Shown piece after piece: positions 2,594 to 58,678 of a DNA stretch of 58,678 nucleotides. Source of the DNA: Yoonia sp. (lineage in GTDB: Archaea > Thermoplasmatota > Poseidoniia > Poseidoniales > Poseidoniaceae); the NCBI GenBank assembly GCA_964230945.1, contig CAXRJJ010000049.1, positions 1-58,678 on the forward strand, in the 5' to 3' direction. The position numbers and the translations under genes were made by a program. The first letter of the stretch is position 1; each line of letters opens with the position of its first letter. The notes under the pieces were generated by a model that was not told the origin of the DNA, searched no databases, and saw nothing but the letters and a program-made list of their open reading frames with translations.

Positions 2594-2600
2594 TCCCTTA

Positions 2601-2616
2601 CTTGTTTGCAAACAAG
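2601..2616. terminator. Perfect 16-nt palindrome CTTGTTTGCAAACAAG, 7 nt after the stop of the upstream surface-protein gene
   Basis: Read directly: CTTGTTTG / CAAACAAG are exact reverse complements. A terminator function is inferred from position only. Confidence 0.35.
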
Positions 2617-2642
2617 CCGTATGCCCTCTAAGGGTTGAGATT

Positions 2643-2671
2643 GGCCGGCTGGGCTGCGCGCCCAGTCGGTC
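2643..2671. terminator. GC-rich stem-loop (about 12 bp including 2 G:U pairs, 5-nt loop)
   Basis: GGCCGGCTGGGC-TGCGC-GCCCAGTCGGTC, paired by hand. It lies downstream of the 2-2593 CDS. Function is inferred. Confidence 0.35.
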
Positions 2672-2710
2672 ACGATTTCGGTAGTTTCCGAAGCAGTGTG
2701 CATTGTTACT

Positions 2711-2728
2711 CATTTACCTTGGTAAATG
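2711..2728. repeat. 8+8 inverted repeat CATTTACC-TT-GGTAAATG; the half-site CATTTACC recurs at 2862-2869
   Basis: Seen directly in the 528-bp intergenic region upstream of the giant ORF. A 2-nt spacer is too short for an RNA hairpin, so a dimeric DNA-binding site is more plausible. Confidence 0.5.
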
Positions 2729-2893
2729 CCTCTCTTGACGATCATATTGGTGGTTTGCGGACTACCTTTGGTGATGCTCATGTTCACTGAGAGTCTTGAA
2801 TAGTTCGAGTTTGAACAAATAGTTTGATTGTAATGTAGCCACCCAATTGGAATGCTTCATTCATTTACCCTCATAACCTGACGTAACAGCGCA

Positions 2894-2935
2894 CGAAATT
2901 CTCAGAAAACTCCGTCCATAATTCCCGAAATTCTC
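2894..2935. repeat. Direct repeat of the 10-mer CGAAATTCTC (2894-2903 and 2926-2935), start-to-start spacing 32 bp
   Basis: Exact match read from the sequence, immediately upstream of a TTTATA element. A possible regulator-binding pair. Confidence 0.5.
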
Positions 2936-2952
2936 TATTTTCTTAGAGGTAA

Positions 2953-2958
2953 TTTATA
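2953..2958 (+). promoter_or_regulatory. Candidate archaeal TATA box (TTTATA)
   Basis: TTTATA within aggtaaTTTATAgcaag. It is the only TATA-like element close to the giant ORF, 53 nt before ATG 3011 and 164 nt before ATG 3122. Position-based inference only. Confidence 0.2.
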
Positions 2959-3121
2959 GCAAGTTTTCGCAATATTTGTGAATTTGGAAAATCGCTGATT
3001 TCTGAACAGTATGGCATTTTTTCAAATATTCTGTACCCCAATGCTCATAAGTGTCATAAGTTCTCCGAAGGCTTGCATACAGTCCGTATACGGAGTTGAT
3101 GACAATATGATAGGAAACAAC

Positions 3122-12100: not shown

Positions 12101-15100
12101 GCTCTTGACTTCGAGATTAAGGACAACACCATTTATGGATTGGCAAACGCAGCTGAGGCTGGAATCTATGTCAGGAATGGATATGGTGAAATCGATGGAA
12201 ACACCTTGGTTGACGCCGATGGTGGAATTCTAGTTGATGGAATCAAGTACGGATACGATGTATCGGTCACTGACAACACCATCTCTAGCAGCGCCGGCCG
12301 CACAGCAATCAGCGCGGTTGGAATCTGGGCAGAGGACTGTGGTTCATCCACCTTCACTACTGGTGGCAACACCATCACTGTGATGGGTAATGCAATTGTT
12401 GCTGATGGATGCGACATCGAGGATACAGGAAGCAATCTGATTGGAACTGGTGGAACCGGATCAATGGTTTACACAGTGAACATGATGGCTACCTACTTCT
12501 CTCCGCAGAACATAACAATCTCCGAAGGTGATTCTATCCGCTGGAGATTGAAGGAATATGCACCTGGTAGCAACTACCAGCACAGCTCAGTATCCAATGA
12601 TACCGCAAGTGGTGCTCCTCTGTGGGATTCGGGTCCATTGAACCTAGGTTCAACTTACACCCGTCAGTTCAACACTGCAGGAACCTACGACTACCATTGT
12701 GGTCAGCACCCATCCTCAATGTTCGGAACAATCACCGTACAGGCAGCAGGAACCGGTTCCAGTACTTACTACAGTACAGGATTCGATGTTGCTGGAGGTA
12801 ATGATGACATTGTACTGAATGGTACCTCGATTACAGGATTCACCACTGCTTACGAGCAGACTGGCGGAAGTCTGAGTCTGATAGGCGATGCTTTGTTGTC
12901 AGCCGATGATTACGGTGCAGACCTTGACAACGTGGATGTGTCCTCTAACGGAGCAAGCCTTGTGACAACTTCCGCAACCGGAGTAGGAATGTACTTCACC
13001 GGTGGAGGCAGTTTGAATCTAGTTGACCTATCGACTGATTCTGCCCGCGGTGTTCACATCAACGGTGAGACTGATGGCGAGTTCGACTGGAATGGTGGAA
13101 CCATCAGCAGCGGTACCGGACTGTATGCTGAAGACAAGGCAGTTGGAGATATCCAGAACATGACATGGAGCGATGCCGATGTGCAGATCCACGCAGGTGA
13201 TAACACTAAGATTACCAGCGTTGGAAACACCTTGGATCCAAGCAAGATGAGTGTATCTAGTACCGGAGAAGTCTATGAGGCCAATCTACTAGATTTGGGT
13301 GTGACACACACCAATTCACCAATCAGCAATGTCGGTCTATTGATTCAGTCTGAGGGTGGCTCTAACGTAGCCTACGTCAGCCCTGATATGAGGAGCGATG
13401 CAATCTCTGTTGCGACCGCTGGAGACAGTGGAGACCTCAGTGATTGGACTGGTAATGAGAAGAACCCAGCCGATGATGCACGACCTGGAGTAGTCTCCAG
13501 CGATGGCGCCGGTGAGGACTTCATGGTGACTTGGGATCAGACCAACCTGTACCTCGCACTGACTGGAGTCGACATGGGAGCAGGCGACCTACTGATCTTC
13601 ATCGATTCAGCAAGTCAGGGAAGCACTTCTGGTTGGGAGTGGGATGGAACTACACCTACCTTCAACCACGCTGCTGATTATGCGTTCTTCGCAGAGAATG
13701 GCGACGATTCACCAAACGATGGAGACACAACTTACACATGGGGATTGAGGAAGTATTCCGATCCTAACTGGGTAGCTGACTCCTGTCAGAACATGCAGGC
13801 TTTCATTGGATGGAGCGACAACACCAACACCGAGGTCAAGATTCCTTGGAGTTGTATCGGTTCCCCATCTGATGGCGACAAGGTTCGTTTGAGCGCTGTG
13901 GTCTTGGGAGAGAGCGATGGTAGCATCGCTAGTTCCCACCCAAGCACTGGGCACGTCAAGTTGACTCTTGGACAGACCAGTCTTTCCGATGGTATGTTGA
14001 ACGACAAGCGCCTCAACTACAGAGAGTTCATCGGTAGTACCACACCAAGTGCAGCTGACGAGTACACTGTCACTGTCAAGGTCGATGCACCTGATGGCTG
14101 TGAAGATGATTGGGGCGTTCTGGCTGACTTGGATATGTCCGCAAACCGTGATGAGTCCATTGACATCCTACGTGCTTGTCCAGTCATCTCTGGCATCACC
14201 GATGTCGAGTACGATGAAGATTCTGGAGCGCACACAATCTCCTTGACAGACAAGGCTGCTGATTTGCAGGATGCTGCGGTTGATCTAACCTGGACCTACG
14301 CTGACGATTATTCAACCAACGAGGCATCTCTACTGAGTGTCAGTCTGAGCGGCCATGAGTTGACAATAACTCCAGCAGACAACCAGTTCGGAACTTACCT
14401 CATCGATTTGACCGTTGAGGACAGCCACGGATTGACTGACAGTGAGACCTTCATGGTCACCGTCAACAACGTCAACGACAAGCCGATTATCTGTAATAGT
14501 GCACGCAGCGATTGTATGCTAGTGTTCTCGGATGACGGATTCGACAACCTCAACATGCTTGATGAAGGATGGGTTGAGCACAAGAAGACACTTGGTTCAA
14601 CAATCAGCTCACCATTCATTACTGACCAGTACAATGAGCAGAACCAGACCTTGGCTAACTCTGAGGATGTACCACAGATCTACACATGGGGCGCAACTGT
14701 CGACGAAGACTGTGTTGCTTTCACTGTAGAGGTTCTACTGAACGAGTTGTGGATCAACGAGAACATGCAGAATGAGTTGGGTGGCGTATGTACCATCACA
14801 ATGACTCTGTCCGACGGAGCATCAGTTAACGATGCTGCGGATGCAGTTGATGTCACCTTCACCATCAACCCTGTTAACGATGTACCAGTGATTCCAGATT
14901 ACGATGTATCTGGAGACAGCCACATCACCGATGGAACTGGTGCGTCGATTGCAACACCATGGTCTGTGACCGTGTTGGAAGACACTGGTTGTGAAGATGG
15001 AGTTTGTGTGAACACAGATGAGTTGACTTTCAACCTCGTTAACATGAAGGAAGACAACGACCACAATGATGAGGATCTGTCCTGGACATGGGAAGAGATT

Positions 15101-16651
15101 AGCAGCAGTTGTGATGTTGACAAGTACTTCGAGTCAATCGAGATTGTAGGAGACAACATCAAGTTCACCCTGATTCAGGATGCAACAACCAACGCTCCTC
15201 CAGAAGAGAAGGACTACTTGGACGACAATGGTATCCACCAGGAGCCACCGCCAAGCATGGATGAATTCTGTGCAATCAAGTTGACACTAAGCGATACTGC
15301 AACTGCACCTTCGTACATCCCTAACTACGGTCTGGCCTCGGCTAGCTACAAGCAGGAGAGCACTGAGAAGTTGTTCAAGATCCGTGTTGATAACACACCA
15401 GAGTTGGTCGCTGACTACCTCTTTGATGTCGACGAGGGAATTGACTTCAACAGTGTACAGTTCATCATGCCTGGTACTCACGTACCAGTCGATGTCACCA
15501 TCAAGCACGAGGGTGATGAGGGACCATACAAGTACGATCAGTTGCTGAAGGTATCTTTCCTAAGTGATGGTGCAGATGGATTGACTGTCAGGGACACCTA
15601 CTACGTCGTGCCACCAGCATATGGCAAGTCGGAGGAGTTCACCAGCAAGGTTCTGATTGAAGAGACAACCACCCGTGTTGGTGCACGTGTCGATGTCATG
15701 ACCTGCAGGGCAGAAGCCTGTCCAAGCCCATCGGCTGCAACACCAAGCGACTTCATCAGCAATGTTCCGCCAGCGCATCAGGCTGAGGCAACGCTGTCGC
15801 CATGGAGTTCACCAGGAACTGTTGGATACTCATCTGCACAGGATGTTTACTCCCAGCGTAGACCTGCCCTAGAAGACAAGGATTGGTTGAACAACGTCAT
15901 GTTCACTTCGACCATCGATTCGGACCCAGAGGGTATCCTTGACTCCGGACAGGAACTACCTGTAATGGTAGACACCATCTCACCAGCGTCTGTGCCATCG
16001 TTTGCACCAGGCTTCGCAGCCATCAGCGCTGCTGGTCTATTCGTCGCTGGATTGATGTTGGCAAGCAGCCGCCGCCGCATGGATGAGGAGGAGCTAGAGG
16101 CTCTATCCATGGTTGATGACGAACAGGCTGTCAGCCCAGTTATCGCTACCATCCTTATGGTTGCAATCACTGTGGTTCTGTCTGGTGTTGTCTACGTGTG
16201 GGCAAGCGATTTGGCAGATCAGCCAAGCAAGTCGGTTCCAAGAATCGGTTTCAAGGTTGAGAAGGTCGATCCAGGCCAGAACGGCTACTGGTCCATCCAG
16301 GTAATCAGCGCTAAGGAGCCAATTGCAACACAGGCAACTGTTGTTCAGTTGGAGTGGGTAAATGCTTCAGGCAGTCAGATTGAGTCATACAGATTGGACA
16401 ACACTGAGGGTGTGTACGGATTCGCTCCGGTCAATTCGGAAAGTTTCGTCACCTTCTCAGACAGTATCGTCTGTGATTCTGCTACTGAGTGTACATCCAC
16501 TTTCGGAGACGGTGATGCAATCCACATCAGTATGACTGATAGCAGTGGAGAGTTGCTAACCGAAGGTGTTCGTGTCACTCTGAAGTACGTGCCAGTTGGA
16601 TTGGGTACTGCAAGTGTGTTGAAGACTTGGAACCTCGAGATTGGAAGCTGA
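3122..16651 (+). CDS. Giant (about 4,500 aa) secreted mosaic surface/adhesin-like protein. Contains Tyr-rich regions, right-handed beta-helix (PbH1-like) repeats, a cupredoxin domain, cadherin-like VNDxP repeats, a PGF-CTERM-like segment and a pilin-like tail.
   Basis: A single uninterrupted frame runs 3011-16651. The preferred start is ATG 3122 (MKKTTIWGGLFSALFLCALMALMPFSSVVAPASE, a signal-peptide-like N-terminus); ATG 3011 and 3107 are alternatives. Beta-helix repeats lie at about 7080-9500 and 11685-12445 (NTIxxN...GIxV). Cadherin-like modules end in VTVNNVNDKPI and FTINPVNDVPV (about 14130-14890). Confidence 0.9.
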   Translation: MKKTTIWGGLFSALFLCALMALMPFSSVVAPASETDYTNESETAEEKADPFFLPEQIEPVNWEYGLENELEGMRTWNQKAFVHDGEIKLLTGSEPIHYADNGVWKDIDVNIKANANGWEVTENAFETYFPADVGAGVTIQLDPNVDPLVTGIAPQVVTMDESGVNPMVHRAAPSHDAISVGGNVIRYPVAQDFDLDYEVTSTGVKQDLIIRSQPVVEEIDYWFGLREIMRLPVGYALFIGDEMVEHEILTTQEPMSIRSLETGSQLGEIPPPVVIEPGAEAPYIATFFVSVENGLISITTAVETSWLMDENRTFPLSLDPSIKQTSNAGGYCYVYYGYCYSSSYRYMYRYYNSHYYMPWSKYQFSSNNQLPSGATASTVKWKQYMQYSYAWGSNSHTVAIMKQCGTDVRYNYQITTASCTSTSMGSSDLGTGYGNTKARKMISSQWNSPSVGTLGLGTGWKSATLSTSGTSDVVSALTSNGVIGMTYRNTNSNYYYTYSNHGGTNNGYLEISYTGGSDTTPPTSEFVPYEATSYKEGARTFFTTLKDGASIDTTSSGKPHLYYSINGGSYTSVAATSIGTCTSSATECRFKASTASISAGDSVDYYWAYQDLAQTAGMNPNGNNFATDPAGGTGSPSSASAPSTPYNFEVEDVVNAGNAKKFVVLTTDVYAGSNWNPSKFFDRQMTYYDDNDEFVFEFDTSNCGTGYSNSCFYASTSSTNFYSNWVTQWTTSPSSGYNGFGGTRSGKSFQHKDLGGYLTISAQNGPSMNLIYHYDSSSNDWGLVGLDTSTGIEDKLTGGTTKNHRSTYGYTKAWNIKLDDISGTVGKFDFNGTYSSSKSNWMCVGTNGFYYFFRSTSSNPGCSSGYYYIYSNSYRWTGFALNAGYYGRMASTGDMSYKVSKVAPEPDLSKPNVIHNVMKDSHSTKRTFAFKITDAGEPPSGLNTSSAAGVGPTLYYTITDADGTVGSQQSKVLSPDDTRSNCVLNACTWTATLSDLERESSISYYLKTQDLSTVASGPNVNQTSANTFEVAWPKKVFIVEWHDIGFNDQYTCNVQARLYDTTNEIEFHYDPDCEVYYDYATVGYQDQTRNKGATLRDDLGYMGNTAKGVGGNPHDVNYRIFTDSSSHGSEEFDTGGFTELTNYKTAITGTSNGRPYLYYCSSSYYWNTYKANCDANIDMPDDFTFEYFGTTYNGTVSTNKVMLSRFAGMYFKQTSSTAPERAMTTWYSNMPELPYKSNSAARPGLIAPWWGGYSAYYCYDTTNVDCSVRYRTMPFEGRGTDIDADITQDTSWDLIDSPIRINPSGDYLAINANLNIEEGVVIQVAQGKGISFDGSCDRMTLQGNSGTNSSTGDSNGILFEGQYGQTWKGISFTGSCSTAAGTDDRHVFNYTTFANTTDYAISAGSRHGNSPSSNSNVGNFTMRHVAFNNVGGAISHGSGQGTAFAISNFEVSDASDSCFSFPAGSDVSLTEGEMDGCNSGNDASGGAVTSDSGSGGSLFMENVTITDAQKNVVNTELSDVTIRNVSASWSGTTNGDYDIRHTGAGHLELTNFDSDDYPNFESNAMTFALDDVDVESSISLYPGGSSSTANGPSGLDASLSDVSANGLNVARSAISGSDIDLNGGDLSISGNSPSADQQSITDLEAGGIGISGCGFNIALTNVDLSDTSDTAYISSSCSSSSAPNTLVVNDGSIATGTSSNNIVYARNSKITLGDTDITGQTSFGNSVAKSSTNGVITLIDVTWQGNDCTDTDGSWAGASVCWVAISSSSGQINFGGSGTAVTFKEKAGARTNKGGIAVSTYALNAAGTAATYYLGTQTTDGNGEAEVWIVTNELSGSSLTSQALSGTYFDASGPAGINSTLNATFGIGDTMYLRLSQPPIVLSDSGMDCAYLAANDSIKDKDEAPDGQPAGTFVLDDGSIQILADLHIDGCAIKLVESSKFIVSGDATSSPVLTISNGGSLILESGSELRAGVAAYPVHLDIGNGGTLSLDASTIKQIRQDSSAGGAIIVGKGATLEMINGSIAYGDSASSKDMATIMVDGGTFAADDASVINNGGTGTGVWFQRTTTVVTDLTVSGAARGIMSKNAAPSVTGFTLTNNDVGVEFYGGMSLPSIYRSTLLSGEATGWTTHAIDLSGQVDSGKQYLQVGFNSIFGGGNAHPRYTYYTSKYYMLYDRMRYEITLDDGTQFNYSYDQAGKDSAGYWSDSSSDNSDYSGWGRYDCNYYGYSRNPAYSAYNYMYYLARYASHYGSNGYYDYPDNFGFRWEDGGDISSGTMYYPYHYWGYYYNNYHAMYSSTYAPPEGFNGLWGNYNICIDYAYNNAYYITPGKGARMAMPIIDLQNTGTNSGTSGNIDTVTLYVDVLHNRADYYQDRFDILARTSDDHNVMGDWMRESGTPSFSDGTITGADVGIEISGSAAAGDVEDVTVNSPTTSGVEVTGSSAISFDGLTVNGGENGVKVTYTGRGKVHLNNIALNNQNNAGILFQKDVSGDLSGTITGSAGPAIEYGWLTNTDRSFENLDLSGNAIGIETAGSGAIELFDSDFANTVDFKITGSSSVDFVDGTVDESTVSVSGAGIFKRARSLEVTVNADSNPIGEGTDVYLLDSSYKMTGSGETDSSGVAQGLRYYTALVDKVGLTNPSLSGYKLGTVAKVGTYSGTTGDFRYYYDSVTLDANAASSESVDLVERFDARVCYSFSSTSYTMLAQCATSTYLSTSGQRTLSCGTGCTMKEYGYYGGVVSDMSNMNIMVDVPFMYIDGGSNNKNEWNNSVVIITGSYSFYGGSAWRATYPYNAKLYVDGSDFIAMNGMQDNGQPNGYQLGYYSWSDVNPWYKNSNFIGVSTIAAANENGNWMPDHFVVVNNTIVSNTAVVPGITALTNDQYCVHNGGVNDAEITDNKFYDCAVSVRAWRGNTWGISSSNWGADDMLIEDNEFNGGVIDVWFALSSYTDDTILRGNTHTGPGISSYAVYAQDQRTTGTLIEGNTIDNSEEPIYLRGALDFEIKDNTIYGLANAAEAGIYVRNGYGEIDGNTLVDADGGILVDGIKYGYDVSVTDNTISSSAGRTAISAVGIWAEDCGSSTFTTGGNTITVMGNAIVADGCDIEDTGSNLIGTGGTGSMVYTVNMMATYFSPQNITISEGDSIRWRLKEYAPGSNYQHSSVSNDTASGAPLWDSGPLNLGSTYTRQFNTAGTYDYHCGQHPSSMFGTITVQAAGTGSSTYYSTGFDVAGGNDDIVLNGTSITGFTTAYEQTGGSLSLIGDALLSADDYGADLDNVDVSSNGASLVTTSATGVGMYFTGGGSLNLVDLSTDSARGVHINGETDGEFDWNGGTISSGTGLYAEDKAVGDIQNMTWSDADVQIHAGDNTKITSVGNTLDPSKMSVSSTGEVYEANLLDLGVTHTNSPISNVGLLIQSEGGSNVAYVSPDMRSDAISVATAGDSGDLSDWTGNEKNPADDARPGVVSSDGAGEDFMVTWDQTNLYLALTGVDMGAGDLLIFIDSASQGSTSGWEWDGTTPTFNHAADYAFFAENGDDSPNDGDTTYTWGLRKYSDPNWVADSCQNMQAFIGWSDNTNTEVKIPWSCIGSPSDGDKVRLSAVVLGESDGSIASSHPSTGHVKLTLGQTSLSDGMLNDKRLNYREFIGSTTPSAADEYTVTVKVDAPDGCEDDWGVLADLDMSANRDESIDILRACPVISGITDVEYDEDSGAHTISLTDKAADLQDAAVDLTWTYADDYSTNEASLLSVSLSGHELTITPADNQFGTYLIDLTVEDSHGLTDSETFMVTVNNVNDKPIICNSARSDCMLVFSDDGFDNLNMLDEGWVEHKKTLGSTISSPFITDQYNEQNQTLANSEDVPQIYTWGATVDEDCVAFTVEVLLNELWINENMQNELGGVCTITMTLSDGASVNDAADAVDVTFTINPVNDVPVIPDYDVSGDSHITDGTGASIATPWSVTVLEDTGCEDGVCVNTDELTFNLVNMKEDNDHNDEDLSWTWEEISSSCDVDKYFESIEIVGDNIKFTLIQDATTNAPPEEKDYLDDNGIHQEPPPSMDEFCAIKLTLSDTATAPSYIPNYGLASASYKQESTEKLFKIRVDNTPELVADYLFDVDEGIDFNSVQFIMPGTHVPVDVTIKHEGDEGPYKYDQLLKVSFLSDGADGLTVRDTYYVVPPAYGKSEEFTSKVLIEETTTRVGARVDVMTCRAEACPSPSAATPSDFISNVPPAHQAEATLSPWSSPGTVGYSSAQDVYSQRRPALEDKDWLNNVMFTSTIDSDPEGILDSGQELPVMVDTISPASVPSFAPGFAAISAAGLFVAGLMLASSRRRMDEEELEALSMVDDEQAVSPVIATILMVAITVVLSGVVYVWASDLADQPSKSVPRIGFKVEKVDPGQNGYWSIQVISAKEPIATQATVVQLEWVNASGSQIESYRLDNTEGVYGFAPVNSESFVTFSDSIVCDSATECTSTFGDGDAIHISMTDSSGELLTEGVRVTLKYVPVGLGTASVLKTWNLEIGS
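12464..12742 (+). other. Embedded cupredoxin (type-1 blue-copper) domain within the giant ORF
   Basis: The segment reads MVYTVNMMATYFSPQNITISEGDSIRWRL...YQHSSV...GTYDYHCGQHPSSMFGTITVQ. Candidate ligands are His (12581-12583), Cys (12698-12700), His (12707-12709) and Met (12719-12721), in the pattern H...C-x2-H-x3-M. The flanking Y-x-Y-x-C and M-x-G-x-I-x-V are typical of plastocyanin/amicyanin/halocyanin. Confidence 0.7.
16007..16078 (+). other. PGF-CTERM-like archaeosortase sorting signal, located internally
   Basis: The sequence is PGF-AAISAAGLFVAGLMLASS-RRR, preceded by a Ser/Pro linker (SPASVPSFA). It has the tripartite layout of a PGF-CTERM: PGF, a hydrophobic helix and an Arg cluster. 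The next codon is ATG, not a stop. Confidence 0.6.
16109..16651 (+). other. Archaeal type-IV-pilin-like (Pilin_N/DUF1628-type) module, in-frame with the giant ORF; possibly an independent CDS
   Basis: M-VDDEQ-AVSPVIATILMVAITVVLSGVVYVWA matches the class III signal peptide plus hydrophobic helix hallmark of this family (xSPVIGxILMVAITVxLA). The module is about 180 aa, the size of stand-alone family members. Alternative start ATG 16079. AGAGG lies 9 nt upstream of ATG 16109. Confidence 0.6.
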
Positions 16652-49999: not shown

Positions 50000-51361
50000 T
50001 CATTCACTCATTGTTTCAGGATTCTCTCCTACCAAATCATCTTGCCACGCTTCAGTTATCTTTTCGATATCTTTGCCATATTGACTTAGCAGCCAATGTA
50101 GTTTGATCATTGCGGCATCTGGTCCACACCTACTGTTATGGCCCAAGATTCCCATTTCCTGTTGGATTCTACCTTTTGAGTAGACAGCCATGTTTACTGG
50201 TCCTTCGATACATTGACTACTGACTAAAGTAATCCCTCCACTATCTCTCCATCGATTCAAAGCGGCTTTCAATTCTGTATTTTCAGGAGCATCTTGCATC
50301 GGATCCTCAATGGGCAAATGCCCTAAGCCGGTTCCTTGTATGTGGATGGCATCTCCTCCCATTTTTGCCACTGCATCAATCAATTCTGCTCGGAGATAAG
50401 GTCCTGCCACTAGGTTGCTGATTCGGATGTTTGTGTCGAAGATAGTGGGGGTGCTTGAGATGGGTCTCTCATCTGTGGGATTGTAAGACTCTCGTAACTC
50501 TATGCGCGGACCTTCACGACTCAGAATGATATCAGCGATGGCATTCGCATTGATTGAACGGAAGGCATCCCTTCGACTTGAATGCGATTTGCGAACGGAA
50601 GAGCCTGGATGTACTGAACAGCGTCCATCCTCTGATGCGGCGTGCATGACTACAACTACTGAGTCGCCCAATCCTCCATCGGTTTGTGGCCCATGGGCTG
50701 CCCATTGTACTGCAGCCATCAGATTTTCAGCAGCATCGCTAGAGCCACGATCGCTGGAACGCTGAGAACCGGTTATTGCAATCCTTCCAGGAGGCCTTCC
50801 TCCCGCGCCGGACCAAGCCATTGAAAGAGCGCATGAAGTCATGTGCATCGTATCAGTCCCTTGAGTTACAACAACACCAACAGCACCTTCTTCGAAGGCT
50901 TGTGCAGTCGCCTGAGAAATCAAGTTCCAATGTTGAGGGCGCATGTCATCCGACCACATATTTCCAATTTTCACGGCCTCGATACGCGCAATTTGAGCAA
51001 GTTCAGGTATTGCAGCCAACATCTCTTCAGGCTCAAACCTTGCAACCACGGCCCCGGTACTGTAGTCGACTTTGCTTGCTATGGTTCCCCCTGTATGGAT
51101 GATGCGAATCAAGGGCAGCGCAGCATCAAATTCCAATTCCCCATTTTCGGATTCTACTCTGGGAACTGCCTCTGCAAGCAACCTCAACGAGATGATATTC
51201 GATAAGGGATGGCTGACATTGTATCCATTGTCGAGCTTAAGGGAAACAAATCCTGTATCAGCGGGTGGCAGAATAACTCCAGTGTGTTGAGTTTCTCCAG
51301 CAGGTCCTTCGACCTGCATCTCGACGCGACTACCTTCTGCGGGTATATCAGAGGGCGCCAT
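50000..51361 (-). CDS. gatD: Glutamyl-tRNA(Gln) amidotransferase subunit D
   Basis: Archaeal GatD layout: an N-terminal beta-domain (LKLDNGYNV) followed by an asparaginase domain with IIHTGGTIAS and VTQGTDTM. Preferred start ATG 51361 (the track uses TTG 51373). Confidence 0.88.
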   Translation of the reverse strand: MAPSDIPAEGSRVEMQVEGPAGETQHTGVILPPADTGFVSLKLDNGYNVSHPLSNIISLRLLAEAVPRVESENGELEFDAALPLIRIIHTGGTIASKVDYSTGAVVARFEPEEMLAAIPELAQIARIEAVKIGNMWSDDMRPQHWNLISQATAQAFEEGAVGVVVTQGTDTMHMTSCALSMAWSGAGGRPPGRIAITGSQRSSDRGSSDAAENLMAAVQWAAHGPQTDGGLGDSVVVVMHAASEDGRCSVHPGSSVRKSHSSRRDAFRSINANAIADIILSREGPRIELRESYNPTDERPISSTPTIFDTNIRISNLVAGPYLRAELIDAVAKMGGDAIHIQGTGLGHLPIEDPMQDAPENTELKAALNRWRDSGGITLVSSQCIEGPVNMAVYSKGRIQQEMGILGHNSRCGPDAAMIKLHWLLSQYGKDIEKITEAWQDDLVGENPETMSE

Positions 51362-51457
51362 ACCGTACTCCAATTATTGGAGGCACATCAACGCTGCGCG
51401 AGTGTGAAGGTCTTGAGCCGCACCATTGAAGACGGTATGGTAGGTCGGCCCACTGTT

Positions 51458-51584
51458 GCCGGGGTGGCGTAGTTGGTGGCGCGTCGGACTCATAGGGCAG
51501 CCGAAAGGCACTGTTCGCGCTGAAGTCAATCTCCGTGATGTCTGAGACATCCGAAGGTCGCGGGTTCAAGCCCCGCTCCCGGCA
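51458..51584 (+). tRNA. Intron-containing tRNA with anticodon CAT (elongator Met or Ile2-type)
   Basis: Folded by hand. Acceptor GCCGGGG/TCCCGGC, D-arm GCGT...GCGC, anticodon stem TCGGA/TCCGA with CAT at 51491-51493, T-arm GCGGG-TTCAAGC-CCCGC, discriminator A. It is 73 nt once the 54-nt intron is removed. G1:C72 argues against an initiator. Confidence 0.85.
51495..51548 (+). other. 54-nt tRNA intron at the canonical 37/38 position with a bulge-helix-bulge motif
   Basis: The central 4-bp helix CTCA (nt 32-35) pairs with TGAG in the intron 3' end. It is flanked by 3-nt bulges TAG and ACA, with an outer helix GGCA/TGTC. The intron also contains a GCC-GAAA-GGC tetraloop hairpin. Confidence 0.75.
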
Positions 51585-51666
51585 CTCACAATTGTTGAGA
51601 CTGAGTCTAATGGTATGAGTTTCTAGTTCCGTAGCATAGAAAGGCCGGACACAGGTCGCGGAGAGC

Positions 51667-52590
51667 ATGGTCGACATGCAGACAGCGATGTCGGCGGCAC
51701 GGGCAGACAGAGGTTCTCGCAAACGCAAGGACGGCGACAAGAAGGGTCGTTCTGGGCGTGATCATGGAATCGAGGCTTTCGACCCAGTCAAGCATGTCTC
51801 CAAAGAAAGAGCAGATATGTATTCCATGTGGTTAGTCATCGCCTTTTCGATAGTTGTATCTTTGATGATGCGCTATCTCGTTATGCCAAATATGGATCCT
51901 TCAGGGAATAAGGATCTTCTCTGGTTCCTACCTATCGCCTTGATTTTCCTTCTCCCTTCATTGCATAGGATGGCAATGTCGGATGAGGTTGTCGAACATT
52001 ACGGCAAAGGAACTTGGTTCAGGGCTTCCTTTTTGCACGTATTCTCTTGGTTAGCTCTTTCATTTCTATTGGCTAATCCGCCATTCGCCGATATCGGGGA
52101 ACCCGAAGTTGCAGCTGCTTGGACTGTCATGGTAATCGATGGCGAAGAATTGCGCTTGACAGATGATGATCTAGATGGAAGCGGCCAGATTGAATTTATT
52201 CTTGACGAGGGTGAAGAAAGATTGGATGGCGAGATTTGGCTGTTATTTGGAATTAGAGATAACCTGAATTCAGAAGCGGTACAAGTTTCTGCAACTCTGA
52301 CACTATTCGATGGAACTGAAATTTCTCTCAATTCATCTGAATCGAGCTTTGACAATTTGAGCGAGTGGGGAGATTCGCACCAAGGTGTAAACGGAACCTA
52401 TGCGTGGCCGACCATTGTATCCAAGGAATATGATAGAGGTATGGCAATTCGATTAGTTACTGATGGATTAGAGACGGGTATCCATGTCATCGATTTGACG
52501 CTGAGTGAAGATGGAAATCCATGGGAGAATTCACGCTCTTATTCTTGGAAGGTTATCGTTAGCGAAGCACCATTTGAAGAAGCAGAATAA
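51667..52590 (+). CDS. Membrane protein, unknown function (basic N-terminus, 3 TM helices, acidic extracytoplasmic C-domain)
   Basis: ATG start. Arg/Lys-rich first 45 aa, then helices MWLVIAFSIVVSLMM, LLWFLPIALIFLLP and FLHVFSWLALSFLLA, then a soluble acidic domain. Confidence 0.55.
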   Translation: MVDMQTAMSAARADRGSRKRKDGDKKGRSGRDHGIEAFDPVKHVSKERADMYSMWLVIAFSIVVSLMMRYLVMPNMDPSGNKDLLWFLPIALIFLLPSLHRMAMSDEVVEHYGKGTWFRASFLHVFSWLALSFLLANPPFADIGEPEVAAAWTVMVIDGEELRLTDDDLDGSGQIEFILDEGEERLDGEIWLLFGIRDNLNSEAVQVSATLTLFDGTEISLNSSESSFDNLSEWGDSHQGVNGTYAWPTIVSKEYDRGMAIRLVTDGLETGIHVIDLTLSEDGNPWENSRSYSWKVIVSEAPFEEAE

Positions 52591-52623
52591 TCAATTGGAA
52601 AAATGAAGAATCCAATTGTACCT

Positions 52624-53580
52624 TCAACTGGATAATGCTTGACAAATCCGGGCTGTCATAGCATCCAATTGCAAGTCTTCTCCACCACCTTCAACCAATC
52701 TGAAATCTATCTCTGCCATCAGTTCAGTCAAATCCAATTTGGCGGCTTCGCTGAGGAATTCAGAATTGTACAATTCACGATGTAGTTGGTTGACCATGTC
52801 TGTCCCTGCAAGACCAAATTTGTCGAGTAGTTCTCGCAGGCGTCTTCTTGCAGCGTGAAAACCATCTTCTCTGCAAGCCAGTAGATATGCTTGTAGGGCT
52901 TCTGGAGGAGCGGTTGCATTAGTCTCGTAGATCATCGCTCTGCTGACGTGTGGATTCAGTGCTGCAGCAACTTGAAGGGCAGTTATTGCTTTTCGCAAAT
53001 CCCCTCTGCTGATGTCGACTATGGCGATACAAGCATCATCATCCAATTCTACTCCTTCTTCTTTGGCAACATGTTCGATCTGTTGTTTGACATCATCATC
53101 TGGTAGCGGCCTGAATCGAAAGACTGCGCAACGAGATTGAATGGGCTCGATAATTTTGGAAGAATAATTGCAGGAGAGAATGAAGCGGCAAGTTTCAGCA
53201 TACTTTTCCATGATTCTACGTAGAGCTCCTTGTGCGTCATTGGTTAGTGCGTCGGCTTCATCGAGGAAAATGATCTTGAAATCCGCACCATGGAGGGGAG
53301 CGGTTCTAGCGAATTGCTTGACTTTGGTGCGTATGCTCTCCAGTTTTCTCTCATCGCTAGCATTCATTTCCAACATATTCTCTCTGAAGCCTTCACCAAA
53401 TACATCTCTGGCGAGGGCCATCGCTGCGGTTGTCTTTCCTGTTCCAGGGGGCCCTGCAAACAGCAGATGTGGAAAGTCGATATTGGCTGCATAAACGACC
53501 AGCCTCTCGACTGCACTGCTTTGCCCGCGTATTTGGGAAACCGAACGGGGGCGGTGCTTTTCAACCCATAATTCGCTCAT
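52624..53580 (-). CDS. rfcS: Replication factor C small subunit
   Basis: Motifs LWVEKHRP, GPPGTGKTT, IFLDEADALT, SRC and the RFC box layout. It is 318 aa with no intein. Confidence 0.92.
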   Translation of the reverse strand: MSELWVEKHRPRSVSQIRGQSSAVERLVVYAANIDFPHLLFAGPPGTGKTTAAMALARDVFGEGFRENMLEMNASDERKLESIRTKVKQFARTAPLHGADFKIIFLDEADALTNDAQGALRRIMEKYAETCRFILSCNYSSKIIEPIQSRCAVFRFRPLPDDDVKQQIEHVAKEEGVELDDDACIAIVDISRGDLRKAITALQVAAALNPHVSRAMIYETNATAPPEALQAYLLACREDGFHAARRRLRELLDKFGLAGTDMVNQLHRELYNSEFLSEAAKLDLTELMAEIDFRLVEGGGEDLQLDAMTARICQALSS

Positions 53581-53693
53581 GCAGGAGTATGGCTGAGTCG
53601 GGGGGCGATGAACCTTATCACTGACCAGTCATGGTGGGGCCGCCCTATGGGCGGCCAGTGCGAAGCATCATAACTCAGTCAGATTCGTCGCCG

Positions 53694-56600
53694 ATGGTGA
53701 GAGCCATGTCAACCGCGCCCACAAGATTCCATGTTTCTGGTAAATCGATGATTTTGGTAGCCATGTTCCTGCTAGCAGATATCGCTTATCCATTCCTTGA
53801 CAATGCACCTCTTCAGGGTTCACCTGAAGTTGATTCCGCACCATCGAATGCCTTCACTTGGACATATAACACAAGCATTGACACCCATATCGATTCAACC
53901 GTTCCTTCAAACACCTACGGTTCTGAGACCACGGCCTTGATCGGGGTAAGTGGAATATTTGAATCTCGCATGTTGATCGAGTTCGCCTTGAACTTGTCTT
54001 CTTCGATGACGGTGCATTCTGCGACACTCGATTTGGAGTGTTTCAATTCTGATGGCGATGCGACTGAGTTCTACATTACCAATGTCACTTCGGCCATCAA
54101 TGAGACCAATGCTAATTGGTTGGGGCCAAATACCTCGCAGTCCTGGGATGTTATGGGTGCGGATTCAAGCAAGGATAGGAGCGCTTGGGAGCCGAGTGTA
54201 GATATGCTCAGCAATGGTACAGTCTCACTGAACATAACTAGGCAGATTCAGGTCAGAGCGGCAAATAACTGGAGTTCGGCAAGATACATCATCTCGGGAA
54301 CCAGTTCTCAATCCGAGTGTTATACCAGCGATTATAGCAATTCTACCTACCATCCGTTGCTCAGTGTAGTGTTGAGCAATAGTAGCGCAGGCCCAGTGGG
54401 GGAATTGACTCCTGATTGGATCGAGGATGGCCATTCGCTGATGACCGGTGATTTCATTCTGTCAGCAGATACGACTCCCACGATGTCATGGAAGAGTTGG
54501 AACGGAACTGGTGTTGAAGTTCAATTATCGCAATCAAGCGAGTTCCGTCAATCTTCAGATGAAGGTGGTCATTGGACCAGTATGTCGAATGCTTCAATTT
54601 TCCAGACCGGTACGGGAACCGGTTCGATGACCGTTCCTGCTTCTGAAGCAGTCTCCAATGGTAGCACAATGTTCTACCGAATGCGCTCGATAAGTTCCGA
54701 TGATCAAATCGGAAAATGGCAGGGCGGTTGGTTCAATTTGCCGGCTCATGACATAACTGACAATGGAGATGGTACGGCAACCCTCAACATAACCTCCTCT
54801 GACCTTGGTCTAGATGACAAGACCATTTGGGATGCAGAATTGGATTCTTCTCAAAAGACCACTTCCTTGGGTTCAGAAAGCACCATCAAAATAGGGACGG
54901 ACACCTCTCCTGATACCGAATACAAGACTATGATGAGATTGAACGCACAGCATCTTGGCCTACCTGCGAATGTAACGATTGTCTCCAATGAGTTTGTTAT
55001 GCAGAAGAGTTCATCCAGTGGAACAGTACTAATTTCAGAAATCTACGTTGAAAATCACATGGATTGGGTTGAGGAGGATGCTACTTGGAATAGCCCTCTT
55101 GGAGATAGCAATGATTGGGATACAGAATTACACACTTCATTTATGAACTACAATGTGTCTTCTAGCACTTCTGAGATTCGATATAATTCTACTATTGGCT
55201 TCCAGTCTTACGTAGCTACCGGAATCACTGAACCGGTTGACTTTCTAATGGTTGGGAAAATGCCCGAGGAGAACAGTTATTCTTCAAACGAGGTCACATT
55301 CCACAGTACTGAAGCAAGTTCTTCTAGCGATCAACCGTACTGGAAAGTCACTTACAAGTGGTCTGCAAATACGTTGATTTCTGATGTCGAGATGTTGCAT
55401 CCAATCGAGGGTCAGGGAGTATGGAACCTTTCGGGACACAATCTATCTGGAAACACAACCCCCGAATTGACTTGGAAGGCTTCCGCCTCTTCAGGAAATG
55501 AAATTCTGTATCAATTTTCGGATGACAAGTTTTTCCGAAATATCGTCAAAGAAGTCAATACTGCTGTGGACAACGATTTCCAAGTTAGTGATGGTTCGTT
55601 TAACTTGACTGCCAGCGATGGTCTATCCACTGGAAATATGTATTATTGGAGAATGGCTCAGGTAGACAGCAACGGAACTTGGAGTTCTTGGAATGAGCAG
55701 TCATTCTTCATTACTGATTTGAATTCAACCTACCTTGGAGGAGATCGTTATCAATTCAATCTTCGAGATGGTAATGCTTCATCGGATGGTCTGCATCCAA
55801 GTTGTCAGGATACTTACATCGATGGTGGTACTCCCACTTCAAATTATGATTCCGAAGAAGAGATGCAGGTCTCATACAACACGATTTTCGGAGGCTCTGA
55901 GACGGCGATTCTGTTCGGCTGTCACTTGCTGACTCATGGCTTGCCAGATGGTTATGCTGTGGTCGAGGCTAAGTTGCGATACAAGATGTCATATGCCAGT
56001 GGTAGTCCATATGTTGGTGCATATGAGAGCCATCAGCATAACTGGACCGAAGAAAGGGCAACTTGGAACCAGTTCGACGGAAGAAATTCTTGGGGAACGG
56101 TAGGTGCTAAGGGATGGGAAAGAGGGCAGTTGTTGTCTTCCACTACGATAAGCGGCAGTAGCGAGTCTTGGTTTGAATGGAATGTCACCCTTGGGGTGCA
56201 GAATGCGATGCGAAATGGCGAGAACTTCGATGTTATACTAGCAGTATTGGGTGCGGGAACTGGAAATAGCAGAGAGGCATTGTTGTACGGAAATTCGGTA
56301 TCTAGTTCAAGCAATAAGGCTGAATTGATATTCACATATGTTCCAGGTTCTGCGGCACTTCCAGATGAACCGACCCCTCTTTCTCCAGCCAACGGTAGTT
56401 GGTCGGTCGATGATGGAATAGAACGTTCTACAATTCCTAATCCGCTGTTGAAGTGGAACTATTCTGGAAATACCAACGCTTCAGGTTTCGTCATTGATAT
56501 CGATAGTAATACCTCTTTCGACAGCGCTGATCTGTTATCGTATGGTTCGTGGACCAGTAGTGGTTTTGATCTTACGAACATGACCTTCCAGGTCCCTGTA

Positions 56601-58678
56601 AATCTCTCCGTCGGCGAAACATGGTACTGGCGCGTGAGAGCGATATCTTCTACTAATCAAATCGGAAATTGGAGCCAATACAATCACTTCCATGTTCCAG
56701 ATCTGACTACATGGACGGTTGATTCAGATAGTGCCGCAGTTGAATTGCGGCACAAAGAAGCGATGCCCTCCCTCGGAGTTCCGCTGTTTGTTGATACTTG
56801 GGTCGCTCATTCAGGAACTGATTTGAACAGCAGTCACGGTTCTGATAGTTCCCTGATTCTTGGTGAGAGAAGCGATGGTTCAACTGCAACTGCTCTGATG
56901 AAGATTCCCTTAACCGATATTCCAATGCCGCAGAATGCAACTCTAGAAAGAGCATTGCTCAACCTGTATTGTGAGTGGGGTACTTCAACCACTCAGCGCG
57001 TTTCTATACATGCGATCAATGGATATTGGAATGAGAGTGCTACCGGCCTTACAAGGGATGGTTCGGCCAACTGGTCTGCAAATTCGACCACTAAATTGAG
57101 CGACATAAGGAGCGATGTTTTCTTCGAAGTGCAGAATGTTTCAGTAACCAATTGGATGTCATTTGACATAACTTACCTCGCTCAGAAAGCACATGCTGCG
57201 GGAGTATCTCACATCGAATTAGCATTGGTTGCTGATGATGACCGTGGAGAAGTCAAGTTTAGCTCAAGTGACTCTAGTAGCGATCAACCTTGGGCCAATT
57301 TAACTTGGACAACTGGTGCTCAATCCGCTTCCGAGAGCGCTGCTACTGGTGGTGCTCCCAATCGAGAGGTTCTGTGGGATAATTCTAGTGTAGCCCTGCT
57401 TCCTGCTGGAACACCTACTCTGAATTGGACTCATGCCAATGGAAGTAGCATTGATTCATGGAGGCTGTACATGTTCCACGATTCCTCTGATGTAAGGGCT
57501 GGCTGGAGTATTCTGGATTCAGCTGTGGATGCAGGTTTCACTCTCGCCAATCTCAGTTATACTCCACCAAGTAATCTATCAAGCGGTAAGTGCTACCTTT
57601 GGGCGGTACAAGCTGTCGATGACCATGTTCTCGGTAGTTTCAGCCAGGGCTACACTTTCTGTTTACCTAATTGGTTGGGTGGAGCGATAAATTCAACCGA
57701 TGCCTATGCGGAGATTCAGGATGGTTCTGCATTACCGCAAATCAATGAGCCAGACTATTTCGAGGATACTTGGTTAGATGGACTCTATACTAATGCAAAT
57801 CATGCGAGCAATACCTCCCTCGTTGTGGGAGACCCTCCGCATATGGGGACATTGGGTGAAGCGACAACTGTCATGATGTACAATCTCAGCGACAATCCAA
57901 TCAAGACGCCTTATGAGGTGGTGAGTGCAACTTTGTCGTTGTACAAGAATGCCGGTGTCTCAAATTCACAGAACATCTCAGTGTCGGTATTGAACTGGGG
58001 ATTCGTGGAAGGTGCGGCTACTTGGAACCAAAGAGCCAATGGTAGCAGTTGGAATGCTGGTGGAGCATTGGGGGCTGCAGATGCGGGTCTGCCGTTAGAT
58101 GTTGTTGAAGTCTCTACAGATGGTTGGTATACATGGGATATTTCGAACGCGGCTCAATTAGGTCATCTCTATGGCCACCAAACCGTATGGTTACTGTTCC
58201 GTTCAGAAGACAGTACGAAGCAGTGGCACCAGTTTGCCAGTTCCGAAGATCCAGACATCGAGTATCGTCCGAAATTGAACTTGACTTGGCGTAGTGGAAA
58301 TGGCTGGACACCTTCTGATTCAACAGGACAAAGTCCAGCTAGTGGTAATGTCATGTGGGACGTCGACGCTGTAAGACCGACACCTCAGAATCCGTTGGAA
58401 TTAGGATGGAATAGCAGCGATTCAAATATCAGTGAATGGGAGTTCCAATATGGAACAAACTCTAGATTTATCGGTTCTTTTGTGCGGACTTGCAGTTCAT
58501 TGACCTGTACTCCCAATAGCAATGCGACCCCATATTTCGACGTGGCCAATTTGAGTTTTCACATACCCATTGATGTTAACACCACTGAAGACGAGTGGAT
58601 ATATTGGCGAGTGCGTGCAATCCAAGGAGATAGATTGGGTAATTGGAGCAGTCCTATGAGTTTCCGAATACCTGCGCC
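53694..58678 (+). CDS. Very large secreted repeat protein, 3'-truncated by the window edge (at least 1,661 codons). Five tandem units of a DNRLRE/CBM96-like beta-sandwich plus an FN3-like 'YWRVRA..GxWS' module.
   Basis: It is absent from the supplied ORF track because it has no stop in the window. I translated the frame from ATG 53694 to 58676 by hand and found no stop. The N-terminus MVRAMSTAPTRFHVSGKSMILVAMFLLADIAYPF is a signal/anchor. The exact start is uncertain, with in-frame ATGs at codons 1, 5 and 19. No competing ORF longer than 119 aa exists in any frame here. Confidence 0.85.
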   Translation, partial: MVRAMSTAPTRFHVSGKSMILVAMFLLADIAYPFLDNAPLQGSPEVDSAPSNAFTWTYNTSIDTHIDSTVPSNTYGSETTALIGVSGIFESRMLIEFALNLSSSMTVHSATLDLECFNSDGDATEFYITNVTSAINETNANWLGPNTSQSWDVMGADSSKDRSAWEPSVDMLSNGTVSLNITRQIQVRAANNWSSARYIISGTSSQSECYTSDYSNSTYHPLLSVVLSNSSAGPVGELTPDWIEDGHSLMTGDFILSADTTPTMSWKSWNGTGVEVQLSQSSEFRQSSDEGGHWTSMSNASIFQTGTGTGSMTVPASEAVSNGSTMFYRMRSISSDDQIGKWQGGWFNLPAHDITDNGDGTATLNITSSDLGLDDKTIWDAELDSSQKTTSLGSESTIKIGTDTSPDTEYKTMMRLNAQHLGLPANVTIVSNEFVMQKSSSSGTVLISEIYVENHMDWVEEDATWNSPLGDSNDWDTELHTSFMNYNVSSSTSEIRYNSTIGFQSYVATGITEPVDFLMVGKMPEENSYSSNEVTFHSTEASSSSDQPYWKVTYKWSANTLISDVEMLHPIEGQGVWNLSGHNLSGNTTPELTWKASASSGNEILYQFSDDKFFRNIVKEVNTAVDNDFQVSDGSFNLTASDGLSTGNMYYWRMAQVDSNGTWSSWNEQSFFITDLNSTYLGGDRYQFNLRDGNASSDGLHPSCQDTYIDGGTPTSNYDSEEEMQVSYNTIFGGSETAILFGCHLLTHGLPDGYAVVEAKLRYKMSYASGSPYVGAYESHQHNWTEERATWNQFDGRNSWGTVGAKGWERGQLLSSTTISGSSESWFEWNVTLGVQNAMRNGENFDVILAVLGAGTGNSREALLYGNSVSSSSNKAELIFTYVPGSAALPDEPTPLSPANGSWSVDDGIERSTIPNPLLKWNYSGNTNASGFVIDIDSNTSFDSADLLSYGSWTSSGFDLTNMTFQVPVNLSVGETWYWRVRAISSTNQIGNWSQYNHFHVPDLTTWTVDSDSAAVELRHKEAMPSLGVPLFVDTWVAHSGTDLNSSHGSDSSLILGERSDGSTATALMKIPLTDIPMPQNATLERALLNLYCEWGTSTTQRVSIHAINGYWNESATGLTRDGSANWSANSTTKLSDIRSDVFFEVQNVSVTNWMSFDITYLAQKAHAAGVSHIELALVADDDRGEVKFSSSDSSSDQPWANLTWTTGAQSASESAATGGAPNREVLWDNSSVALLPAGTPTLNWTHANGSSIDSWRLYMFHDSSDVRAGWSILDSAVDAGFTLANLSYTPPSNLSSGKCYLWAVQAVDDHVLGSFSQGYTFCLPNWLGGAINSTDAYAEIQDGSALPQINEPDYFEDTWLDGLYTNANHASNTSLVVGDPPHMGTLGEATTVMMYNLSDNPIKTPYEVVSATLSLYKNAGVSNSQNISVSVLNWGFVEGAATWNQRANGSSWNAGGALGAADAGLPLDVVEVSTDGWYTWDISNAAQLGHLYGHQTVWLLFRSEDSTKQWHQFASSEDPDIEYRPKLNLTWRSGNGWTPSDSTGQSPASGNVMWDVDAVRPTPQNPLELGWNSSDSNISEWEFQYGTNSRFIGSFVRTCSSLTCTPNSNATPYFDVANLSFHIPIDVNTTEDEWIYWRVRAIQGDRLGNWSSPMSFRIPA

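Follow-up and report, generated by a model that had tools for sequence, protein, structure and literature searches.

Gene reconstruction across three contigs

The stretch of DNA analysed in this work, hereafter the window, comprises 58,678 nt and is the complete contig C49 of the metagenome-assembled genome (MAG) G000 (1.91 Mb, 134 contigs, 82% complete). The host is an archaeon of Marine Group II (MGII), the closest named genomes being Ca. Poseidoniaceae and Ca. Poseidoniales MAGs; the archaeal RFC small subunit encoded upstream of the gene and a probably intron-bearing tRNA in its vicinity agree with this placement. The 3' end of the window carries the front half of a giant gene for a surface protein, whose complete product is organised as a putative N-terminal export signal, six alternating pairs of a domain with the carbohydrate-binding module (CBM) fold CBM96 and an FN3-like domain, a seventh CBM96 domain, about eight immunoglobulin (Ig)-like domains, a transmembrane helix and an acidic tail (Table 1).

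An earlier model reading of the letters, referred to here as the sequence-only reading, had described a frame from ATG 53694 to the window end, absent from the accompanying list of open reading frames (ORFs) and apparently free of stops. This was confirmed: no stop codon occurred in frame between 53631 and 58676 of the forward strand (1682 aa, 3' end open). The omission is probably explained by the default behaviour of ORF listers, which skip frames with an open end. There are two in-frame ATGs, at 53631 (longest version) and 53694, and the N-termini of the orthologues make the latter appear the more plausible start.

The final 360 nt of C49 (window 58319-58678) overlapped C85:1-360 with 98.6% identity and five mismatches, which probably reflect strain heterogeneity. 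C85 consisted of a single open frame spanning all of its 3,925 nt, and its last 141 nt were identical (100%) to the start of C62, where the stop codon of the gene was located (C62:925-927). The joined C49-C85-C62 product, of 3,132 aa, was colinear over aa 1-3132 with an uninterrupted single-contig ORF of the congeneric genome G004 (96.3% identity, one gap), and relatives carried single-contig orthologous ORFs of 3,011-3,205 aa. This end-to-end alignment, together with the intact ORFs of the relatives, indicated that the join is sound. The window frame covers the front half of a single gene that is real, protein-coding and conserved, and that takes up about 0.5% of the genome. Extension beyond the contig, which the sequence-only reading had proposed, gave a total of seven A (CBM96-fold) and six B (FN3-like) modules, and placed the Ig-like stalk, the C-terminal transmembrane anchor and the cytoplasmic tail on C85 and C62. 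As a separate matter, the assembly break inside the giant gene was probably caused by co-existing strains, and C85 may derive from a slightly different strain than C49.

Table 1. Features of the giant gene and its product (residues counted from ATG 53631; HMM, hidden Markov model built in this work; AF2, AlphaFold2)
Feature	Window position (nt)	Residues (aa)	Strand	Evidence
5' 54% of giant surface-protein gene (1682/3132 codons)	53631..58678		+	Open frame to contig end, continuing on C85 and C62
N-terminal hydrophobic segment SMILVAMFLLADIAYPFL after basic n-region	53745..53798	~39-56	+	Read from sequence; pattern shared by orthologues
A1, DNRLRE/CBM96-fold module	53877..54371	83-247	+	HMM, E 6e-10 outside seed; one of five NF033679 stretches
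B1, FN3-like module and linker	54372..54818	248-396	+	HMM, E 8e-8 outside seed
A2, DNRLRE/CBM96-fold module	54828..55352	400-574	+	HMM; NF033679 33.5 bits (six-frame search)
B2, FN3-like module	55353..55802	575-724	+	HMM; best PF25788 Ig_Rha78A_N stretch
A3, DNRLRE/CBM96-fold module	55806..56336	726-902	+	HMM; NF033679 49.7 bits; AF2/Foldseek
B3, FN3-like module	56337..56786	903-1052	+	HMM; AF2/Foldseek
A4, DNRLRE/CBM96-fold module	56790..57305	1054-1225	+	HMM; NF033679 63.4 bits
B4, FN3-like module	57306..57755	1226-1375	+	HMM
A5, DNRLRE/CBM96-fold module	57762..58286	1378-1552	+	HMM; best NF033679 stretch of the window, 74.6 bits
B5, FN3-like module	58287..58676	1553-1711	+	HMM; core complete, C-terminal linker on C85
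A6	beyond window	1713-1875		NF033679 85.1 bits; PF24517 56.5 bits
B6	beyond window	1877-2019		HMM
A7	beyond window	2021-2204		hmmscan stretch and HMM
About eight Ig-like repeats, ~90 aa each	beyond window	2212-2975		AF2/Foldseek
One transmembrane helix	beyond window	~2990-3017		

Module identity and predicted structure

Five tandem units had been proposed for the window, each made of a DNRLRE/CBM96-like and an FN3-like domain, and HMM searches recovered the same arrangement of five A modules, each followed by a B module. All A modules began within 13 nt of the positions originally estimated (53880, 54815, 55808, 56790 and 57765), the repeat period was 317-335 aa, and the FN3 core of B5 stopped exactly at the window end. 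Plain BLASTP self-comparison of the window protein yielded no internal repeats at E ≤ 10 because the copies are too diverged (16-31% identical in protein), so that profile methods were needed. With these the periodicity was recovered: an HMM from four A copies picked up the three others with E-values of 2e-10 to 3e-9, and one from two B copies picked up the four others with E-values of 2e-9 to 2e-4.

The assignment of both domain types was judged against curated cut-offs of 34 bits for NF033679 (DNRLRE_dom), 26 bits for PF24517 (CBM96), 27.4 bits for PF25788 (Ig_Rha78A_N) and 25 bits for PF00041 (fn3). NF033679 matched all five A copies of the window part (194.7 bits, five stretches) and two further stretches on the remainder (93.6 bits). 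When copies were scored singly in a six-frame search, A3 to A6 exceeded the cut-off and A2 fell just under it (Table 1); A1 and A7 were supported by NF033679 stretches from hmmscan and by our HMM. With PF24517 only A6 was above threshold, there being no match at E ≤ 1 on the five A copies of the window; precomputed matches to this family exist for orthologues. On the B modules of the window part PF25788 scored above its cut-off (30.3 bits, two stretches). For module B of the giant, the classic Pfam fn3 model came out just below its own (21.0 bits).

Structural comparisons pointed in the same direction. A profile built from 82 A+B units matched PDB entries 8wab and 7vbo with E-values around 1e-13, and the FN3 domains of neogenin with an E-value of 0.002. 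The AF2 model of unit 3, obtained with the 82-unit alignment (pLDDT 94.3, pTM 0.85), had 8wab (TM-score 0.72) and 7vbo (TM-score 0.74) as top Foldseek matches, with probability 1.0. Its B half (residues ~190-297 of the unit model) was all-beta and retrieved FN3 pairs of DCC, neogenin, PTP-delta and LAR, also with probability 1.0. These results supported module A as a sequence-level member of the DNRLRE/CBM96 family with the CBM96 beta-sandwich fold, and module B as an FN3-like fold.

Distribution and age of the array

The DNRLRE domain is common in the phylum (66 of 151 genomes), and the giant gene is the only gene in G000 that encodes it. Across the order, the giant gene was present in 99 of 151 genomes (completeness ≥ 85%). 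It was single-copy, and no listed Poseidoniaceae genome lacked it; the sister family had it in six genera with genomes of 1.6-2.2 Mb, and it was absent from genera with genomes of 1.3-1.6 Mb.

All 14 full-length orthologues, from two families, presented seven A and six B modules in the same order. In module trees (98 A and 84 B sequences) each repeat position formed its own clade with support of 0.96-1.0, and modules at the same position in different genomes were 38-43% identical as compared to 21% for different positions within one genome. Conservation among the A modules was highest in A3 and A6, with A3 ahead at a mean identity of 48% between orthologues. The positional clades indicated that the array was complete before the two families split and was not homogenised later, which strongly supports the original view of an old duplication rather than a recent expansion. 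The ratio of non-synonymous to synonymous substitution rates (dN/dS) against the closest orthologue was 0.097 overall, 0.04-0.23 for the individual modules and 0.036 for the transmembrane helix plus tail, the C-terminal end-module ranking with the most conserved parts of the protein. The modules all evolve under purifying selection, without any arms-race signature.

In one same-family relative (94.6% complete) the orthologous region, G286:C1:434260-437566, aligned partly and only through 21 stop codons, beside an open piece of 2,067 aa, which may point to a pseudogene or a rearranged copy.

Sequons and predicted N-glycosylation

Dense decoration with N-x-S/T sequons had been noted for the frame, with a hand count of 13 in about the first 330 aa, and exactly this number was obtained for the first 330 aa from the methionine at 53694. 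The window part contained 57 sequons (3.39 per 100 aa), a higher density than in any other of the genome's 30 largest ORFs. In the whole ectodomain there were 85, as compared to 38.9 ± 5.3 in composition-preserving shuffles (z = 8.6), so that the enrichment of the giant protein over its composition was about 2.2- to 2.3-fold. The genome background was 0.44 per 100 aa in ORFs shorter than 700 aa and 0.65 per 100 aa over all ORFs, the density in the giant being about eight times that of ordinary proteins. The B modules were the most sequon-dense part (4.1 per 100 aa), and the cytoplasmic tails of the orthologues contained none or one. Enrichment was kept in all 14 orthologues (1.84-3.09 per 100 aa), and 28 of 86 sequons were common to at least half of the orthologues from other genera. 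A homologue of STT3/AglB is encoded in the genome. Thus, the conserved enrichment and the presence of the transferase homologue back the earlier suggestion of heavy N-glycosylation; from these we infer the modification itself, and the ectodomain is probably heavily N-glycosylated.

The other giant ORF of the window (3011-16651, forward strand, 4,546 aa) was sequon-depleted (0.55 per 100 aa, observed/expected 0.44). Among the approximately 30 ORFs of the genome longer than 1,500 aa the observed/expected ratio ranged from 0.44 to 3.1, a spread that suggests two classes of surface giants by N-glycosylation.

Stalk, membrane anchor, tail and gene cluster

The hydrophobic segment SMILVAMFLLADIAYPFL near the N-terminus is best read as an export signal, either signal-peptide-like or a signal anchor. 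At the opposite end, the AF2 model of the stalk (pLDDT 84.3) was all-beta and its structural matches were multi-Ig chains, among them gp210, DSCAM, titin, contactins and S-layer proteins of bacteria. The transmembrane helix is followed by a cytoplasmic tail of about 115 aa, acidic at first, then rich in Pro, Gly and Ser, and ending in VDENGTEWWQDEAGIWWYRGPGESDWSEWRD; its C-terminal end is a conserved Trp-rich module of about 30 aa. Anchoring through PGF-CTERM and archaeosortase was rejected, as the protein terminates in this tail without a PGF-CTERM end. The same Trp-rich module was also detected at the C-terminus of two other ORFs of G000, C60:42-989 and C120:12646-13392 (HMM E 5e-16 and 4e-13, respectively).

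Gene order around the giant was conserved in both families: the RFC gene in divergent orientation, the giant gene, a gene for a protein of ~896 aa and one for a protein of up to 845 aa. In G000 the two downstream genes (locus L029) were C62:915-3605 (896 aa) and C62:~3606-6143 (up to 845 aa), the first ATG overlapping the giant's stop by 13 nt. Both downstream proteins had an N-terminus resembling a signal sequence and Ig-like repeats that are paralogues of those in the giant's stalk, together with a transmembrane helix and a cytoplasmic tail whose end is W/Y-rich with a GWY...W motif. As the trio is syntenic in both families, the giant and its two downstream Ig-stalk proteins may form a complex. 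Upstream, the neighbours were the archaeal RFC small subunit and GatD.

The anatomy of the protein is firm: a single-pass surface rod of predicted type-I topology, probably heavily N-glycosylated, that carries seven lectin-fold modules away from the membrane.

Possible role of the rod

MGII count among the most abundant archaea of surface oceans and, to our knowledge, have no cultured representative; their contact with particles, algae and polymers has been inferred from genomes only. We propose that the giant could act as a multivalent glycan- or polymer-binding rod for adhesion or capture, a role to which we give an even chance. With the type I topology that the layout suggests, the Ig-like stalk would adjoin the membrane and project the CBM96-FN3 array as an extended, heavily N-glycosylated rod, with the FN3 modules as glycosylated spacers; a rough estimate from the ~22 beta-sandwich domains puts the length of such a filament in the order of 70-100 nm. 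Together the seven lectin-fold modules would bind glycans or other polymers outside the cell in a multivalent way, possibly with several specificities given how long ago they diverged. Candidate targets would be polysaccharides from algae or particles, or the glycan coat of the cell itself. Attachment or substrate capture would result, and the conserved tail might couple the rod to a putative cytoplasmic partner. A lectin-type role is supported by the fact that both solved members of the family bind polysaccharides, alginate (PMC9971899) and chondroitin sulfate (8wab), and the surface context is supported by the conserved cluster with two further proteins that have an Ig-like stalk, a transmembrane helix and a tail.

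Several observations weigh against this proposal. Alginate binding by 7VBO requires K10, K22, K25, K27, K31, R36 and Y159, and is abolished by R36E (PMC9971899). Across the 98 archaeal A modules only 16 of the 588 cells in six basic 7VBO columns were basic, and conservation in the groove-equivalent columns did not exceed that elsewhere in the domain; an Arg adjoining the R36 column was kept only in A1 (12/14) and A7 (8/14). The net charge of every A module was between -8 and -18, which argues against the polyanionic ligands of both characterised relatives. Binding of alginate or glycosaminoglycans by homology was therefore rejected, both at residue level and by charge: since the basic groove is absent, the ligand is not alginate bound in the manner of 7VBO. 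The CBM96 fold family applies to these modules and its known binding mechanism does not. Neither did Pfam and NCBIfam searches detect a catalytic domain in the whole 3,132 aa, so that the usual logic of a CBM cannot be applied and a catalytic function of the giant was discarded. The archaellum has been proposed as the adhesion apparatus of MGII (PMC6461757); in genera outside Poseidoniaceae, archaellin and the giant gene showed no association (both in three, giant only in three, archaellin only in three, neither in four). Finally, three seawater metatranscriptome runs from a linked study contained no contig matching window 50000-58678, housekeeping neighbours included, and were thus uninformative.

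The absence of the canonical groove would fit a structural envelope glycoprotein, S-layer-like or a glycocalyx canopy, whose CBM96 and FN3 modules would be a rigid glycosylated scaffold or units of self-association; we regard this as possible, with some doubt. Several archaeal S-layer glycoproteins carry a C-terminal transmembrane anchor, and the giant shares two traits with proteins of this type, this anchor and enriched, conserved sequons, at the highest density among the 30 largest ORFs. It is also encoded by a single-copy core gene of every listed Poseidoniaceae genome with purifying selection on all modules, its stalk resembles the S-layer proteins Sap, EA1, SbsC and SbsB as well as cell-adhesion Ig chains, and DNRLRE was first described in surface and S-layer proteins of Methanosarcina and in disaggregatase (PMC2447325; PMC9971899). 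However, with 3,132 aa and about 22 domains the giant is far above known archaeal S-layer proteins in size, and several sister-family genera with genomes more than 90% complete lack the gene and would need another envelope protein. Moreover, about 30 other proteins of the genome exceed 1,500 aa, and nothing marks the giant as a lattice former.

The conservation of the cytoplasmic end raises the idea of an outside-in receptor, in which ligand binding would be relayed through the single transmembrane helix to the Trp-rich module and a partner, in the manner of integrins or other receptors. In favour of it, the end-module is among the best-conserved parts and recurs on at least two other G000 proteins, and both downstream partners of the cluster also combine a transmembrane helix with W/Y-rich tail ends. 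No partner, kinase or GTPase gene is linked to the giant, though, its upstream neighbours being RFC and GatD, and signalling does not follow from a single-pass helix and a disordered acidic linker alone. The tail could just serve to anchor or sort the protein; we consider the receptor unlikely. Still more speculative, and improbable in our judgement, is that the rod bears seven distinct binding specificities and forms, with the Trp-rich end-module and the two syntenic partners, an outside-in adhesion receptor complex. The idea of seven specificities comes from the modules having stayed separate at each position since a time earlier than the divergence of the two MGII families. Were it true, such a complex would give an uncultured archaeon, abundant in the ocean, a functional counterpart to the multi-domain adhesion receptors of eukaryotes.

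An accessory to a cell-bound carbohydrate-active enzyme (CAZyme), with the CBM96 array targeting a polysaccharide-degrading enzyme to its substrate in cis or in trans, would agree with both solved relatives being CBMs of polysaccharide lyases, the alginate lyase Dp0100 (PMC9971899) and a chondroitinase (8wab), and with MGII being heterotrophs thought to use algal polymers (PMC6461757). It is nevertheless very unlikely, given that the protein has no detectable catalytic domain, that the neighbouring genes do not encode CAZymes and that the binding residues are not conserved; the version in cis is largely refuted. Giant surface proteins are often targeted by viruses, and the assembly breaks within the gene, where a contig overlap differing at 5 of 360 nt points to co-existing strains, but a virus-facing decoy or receptor in an arms race is scarcely credible with dN/dS values of 0.04-0.23 in every module, without any hot spot, and with copy number and order invariant across the order; diversifying selection was ruled out by the low dN/dS throughout. 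Both the enzyme-accessory and the virus-decoy explanations are thus largely excluded.

Comparison with known systems

The CBM96 family was founded on TM6-N4 of the alginate lyase Dp0100 from Defluviitalea phaphyphila (PDB 7VBO), defined in 2022 (PMC9971899), and 8WAB is titled as a chondroitin-sulfate-binding CBM of a chondroitinase. Besides sequence membership and the beta-sandwich fold, module A keeps the family motifs D-T-x-[IV], N-x-[GS]-S, W-x-E...[AT]-W-N and S-x-E...[RQ]P-x-L. In contrast to the known relatives, which have one CBM on a lyase, the giant has seven copies and no catalytic module; unlike 7VBO, its modules lack the basic ligand groove, are all strongly acidic and belong to a membrane-anchored archaeal protein. 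The CAZy definition of a CBM, a non-catalytic module within a CAZyme, does not extend to the giant.

A second set of relatives comprises the DNRLRE-domain surface proteins of Methanosarcina described in 2004 (Adindla et al., PMC2447325), archaeal surface proteins with one or more such domains. The Disaggr_repeat (PF06848) of disaggregatase-related proteins had a weak match in the giant and precomputed matches on orthologues; no disaggregatase-associated catalytic domain was found in the giant. Unlike in these proteins, its DNRLRE domains alternate as (DNRLRE-FN3)x6-DNRLRE on an Ig stalk with a transmembrane helix and a Trp-rich tail, a layout specific to the two sampled families. Module B shares its YWR[VM]-x(5-8)-G-x-WS motif and FN3 fold with PF25788, the N-terminal Ig domain of GH78 alpha-L-rhamnosidases, and with FN3 domains such as FN5-6 of neogenin/DCC, but here it is a repeated spacer between lectin-fold modules and the part richest in sequons. 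The membrane-proximal ~780 aa, with about eight tandem Ig-like domains, resemble multi-Ig rods (Sap/EA1/SbsC, giant adhesins, the GhpA neck, DSCAM/contactin/titin) in fold class only (9-14% identity, low global TM-score), and no lattice-forming or Ca-binding features were identified in the giant.

A search of the literature on surface proteins or giant adhesins of Poseidoniales retrieved nothing specific to this gene, and NCBI labels the orthologues "DNRLRE domain-containing protein". Public databases already contain its domain types and this automatic annotation, so it is not a new kind of system. For this genome and its family, the present analysis adds the reconstruction of the full gene across contigs, the tests of positional orthology and dN/dS, the rejection of the alginate mechanism at residue level, the conserved three-gene surface cluster and the negative association with the archaellum. 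Being single-copy, present in every listed Poseidoniaceae genome and constant in layout across two families, the giant is a natural starting point for experiments on binding and localisation.

Other features near the gene

A 307-aa ORF upstream of the giant gene (window 51667-52590, forward strand), with a basic N-terminus and no Pfam match, is conserved at 35-97% identity: each of the six orthologous loci inspected, which represent both families, has it close to the giant gene. A 127-nt match to the Rfam tRNA model (window 51458-51584, forward strand, 52.6 bits), not called by ARAGORN, is probably an intron-containing archaeal tRNA, as its length suggests.

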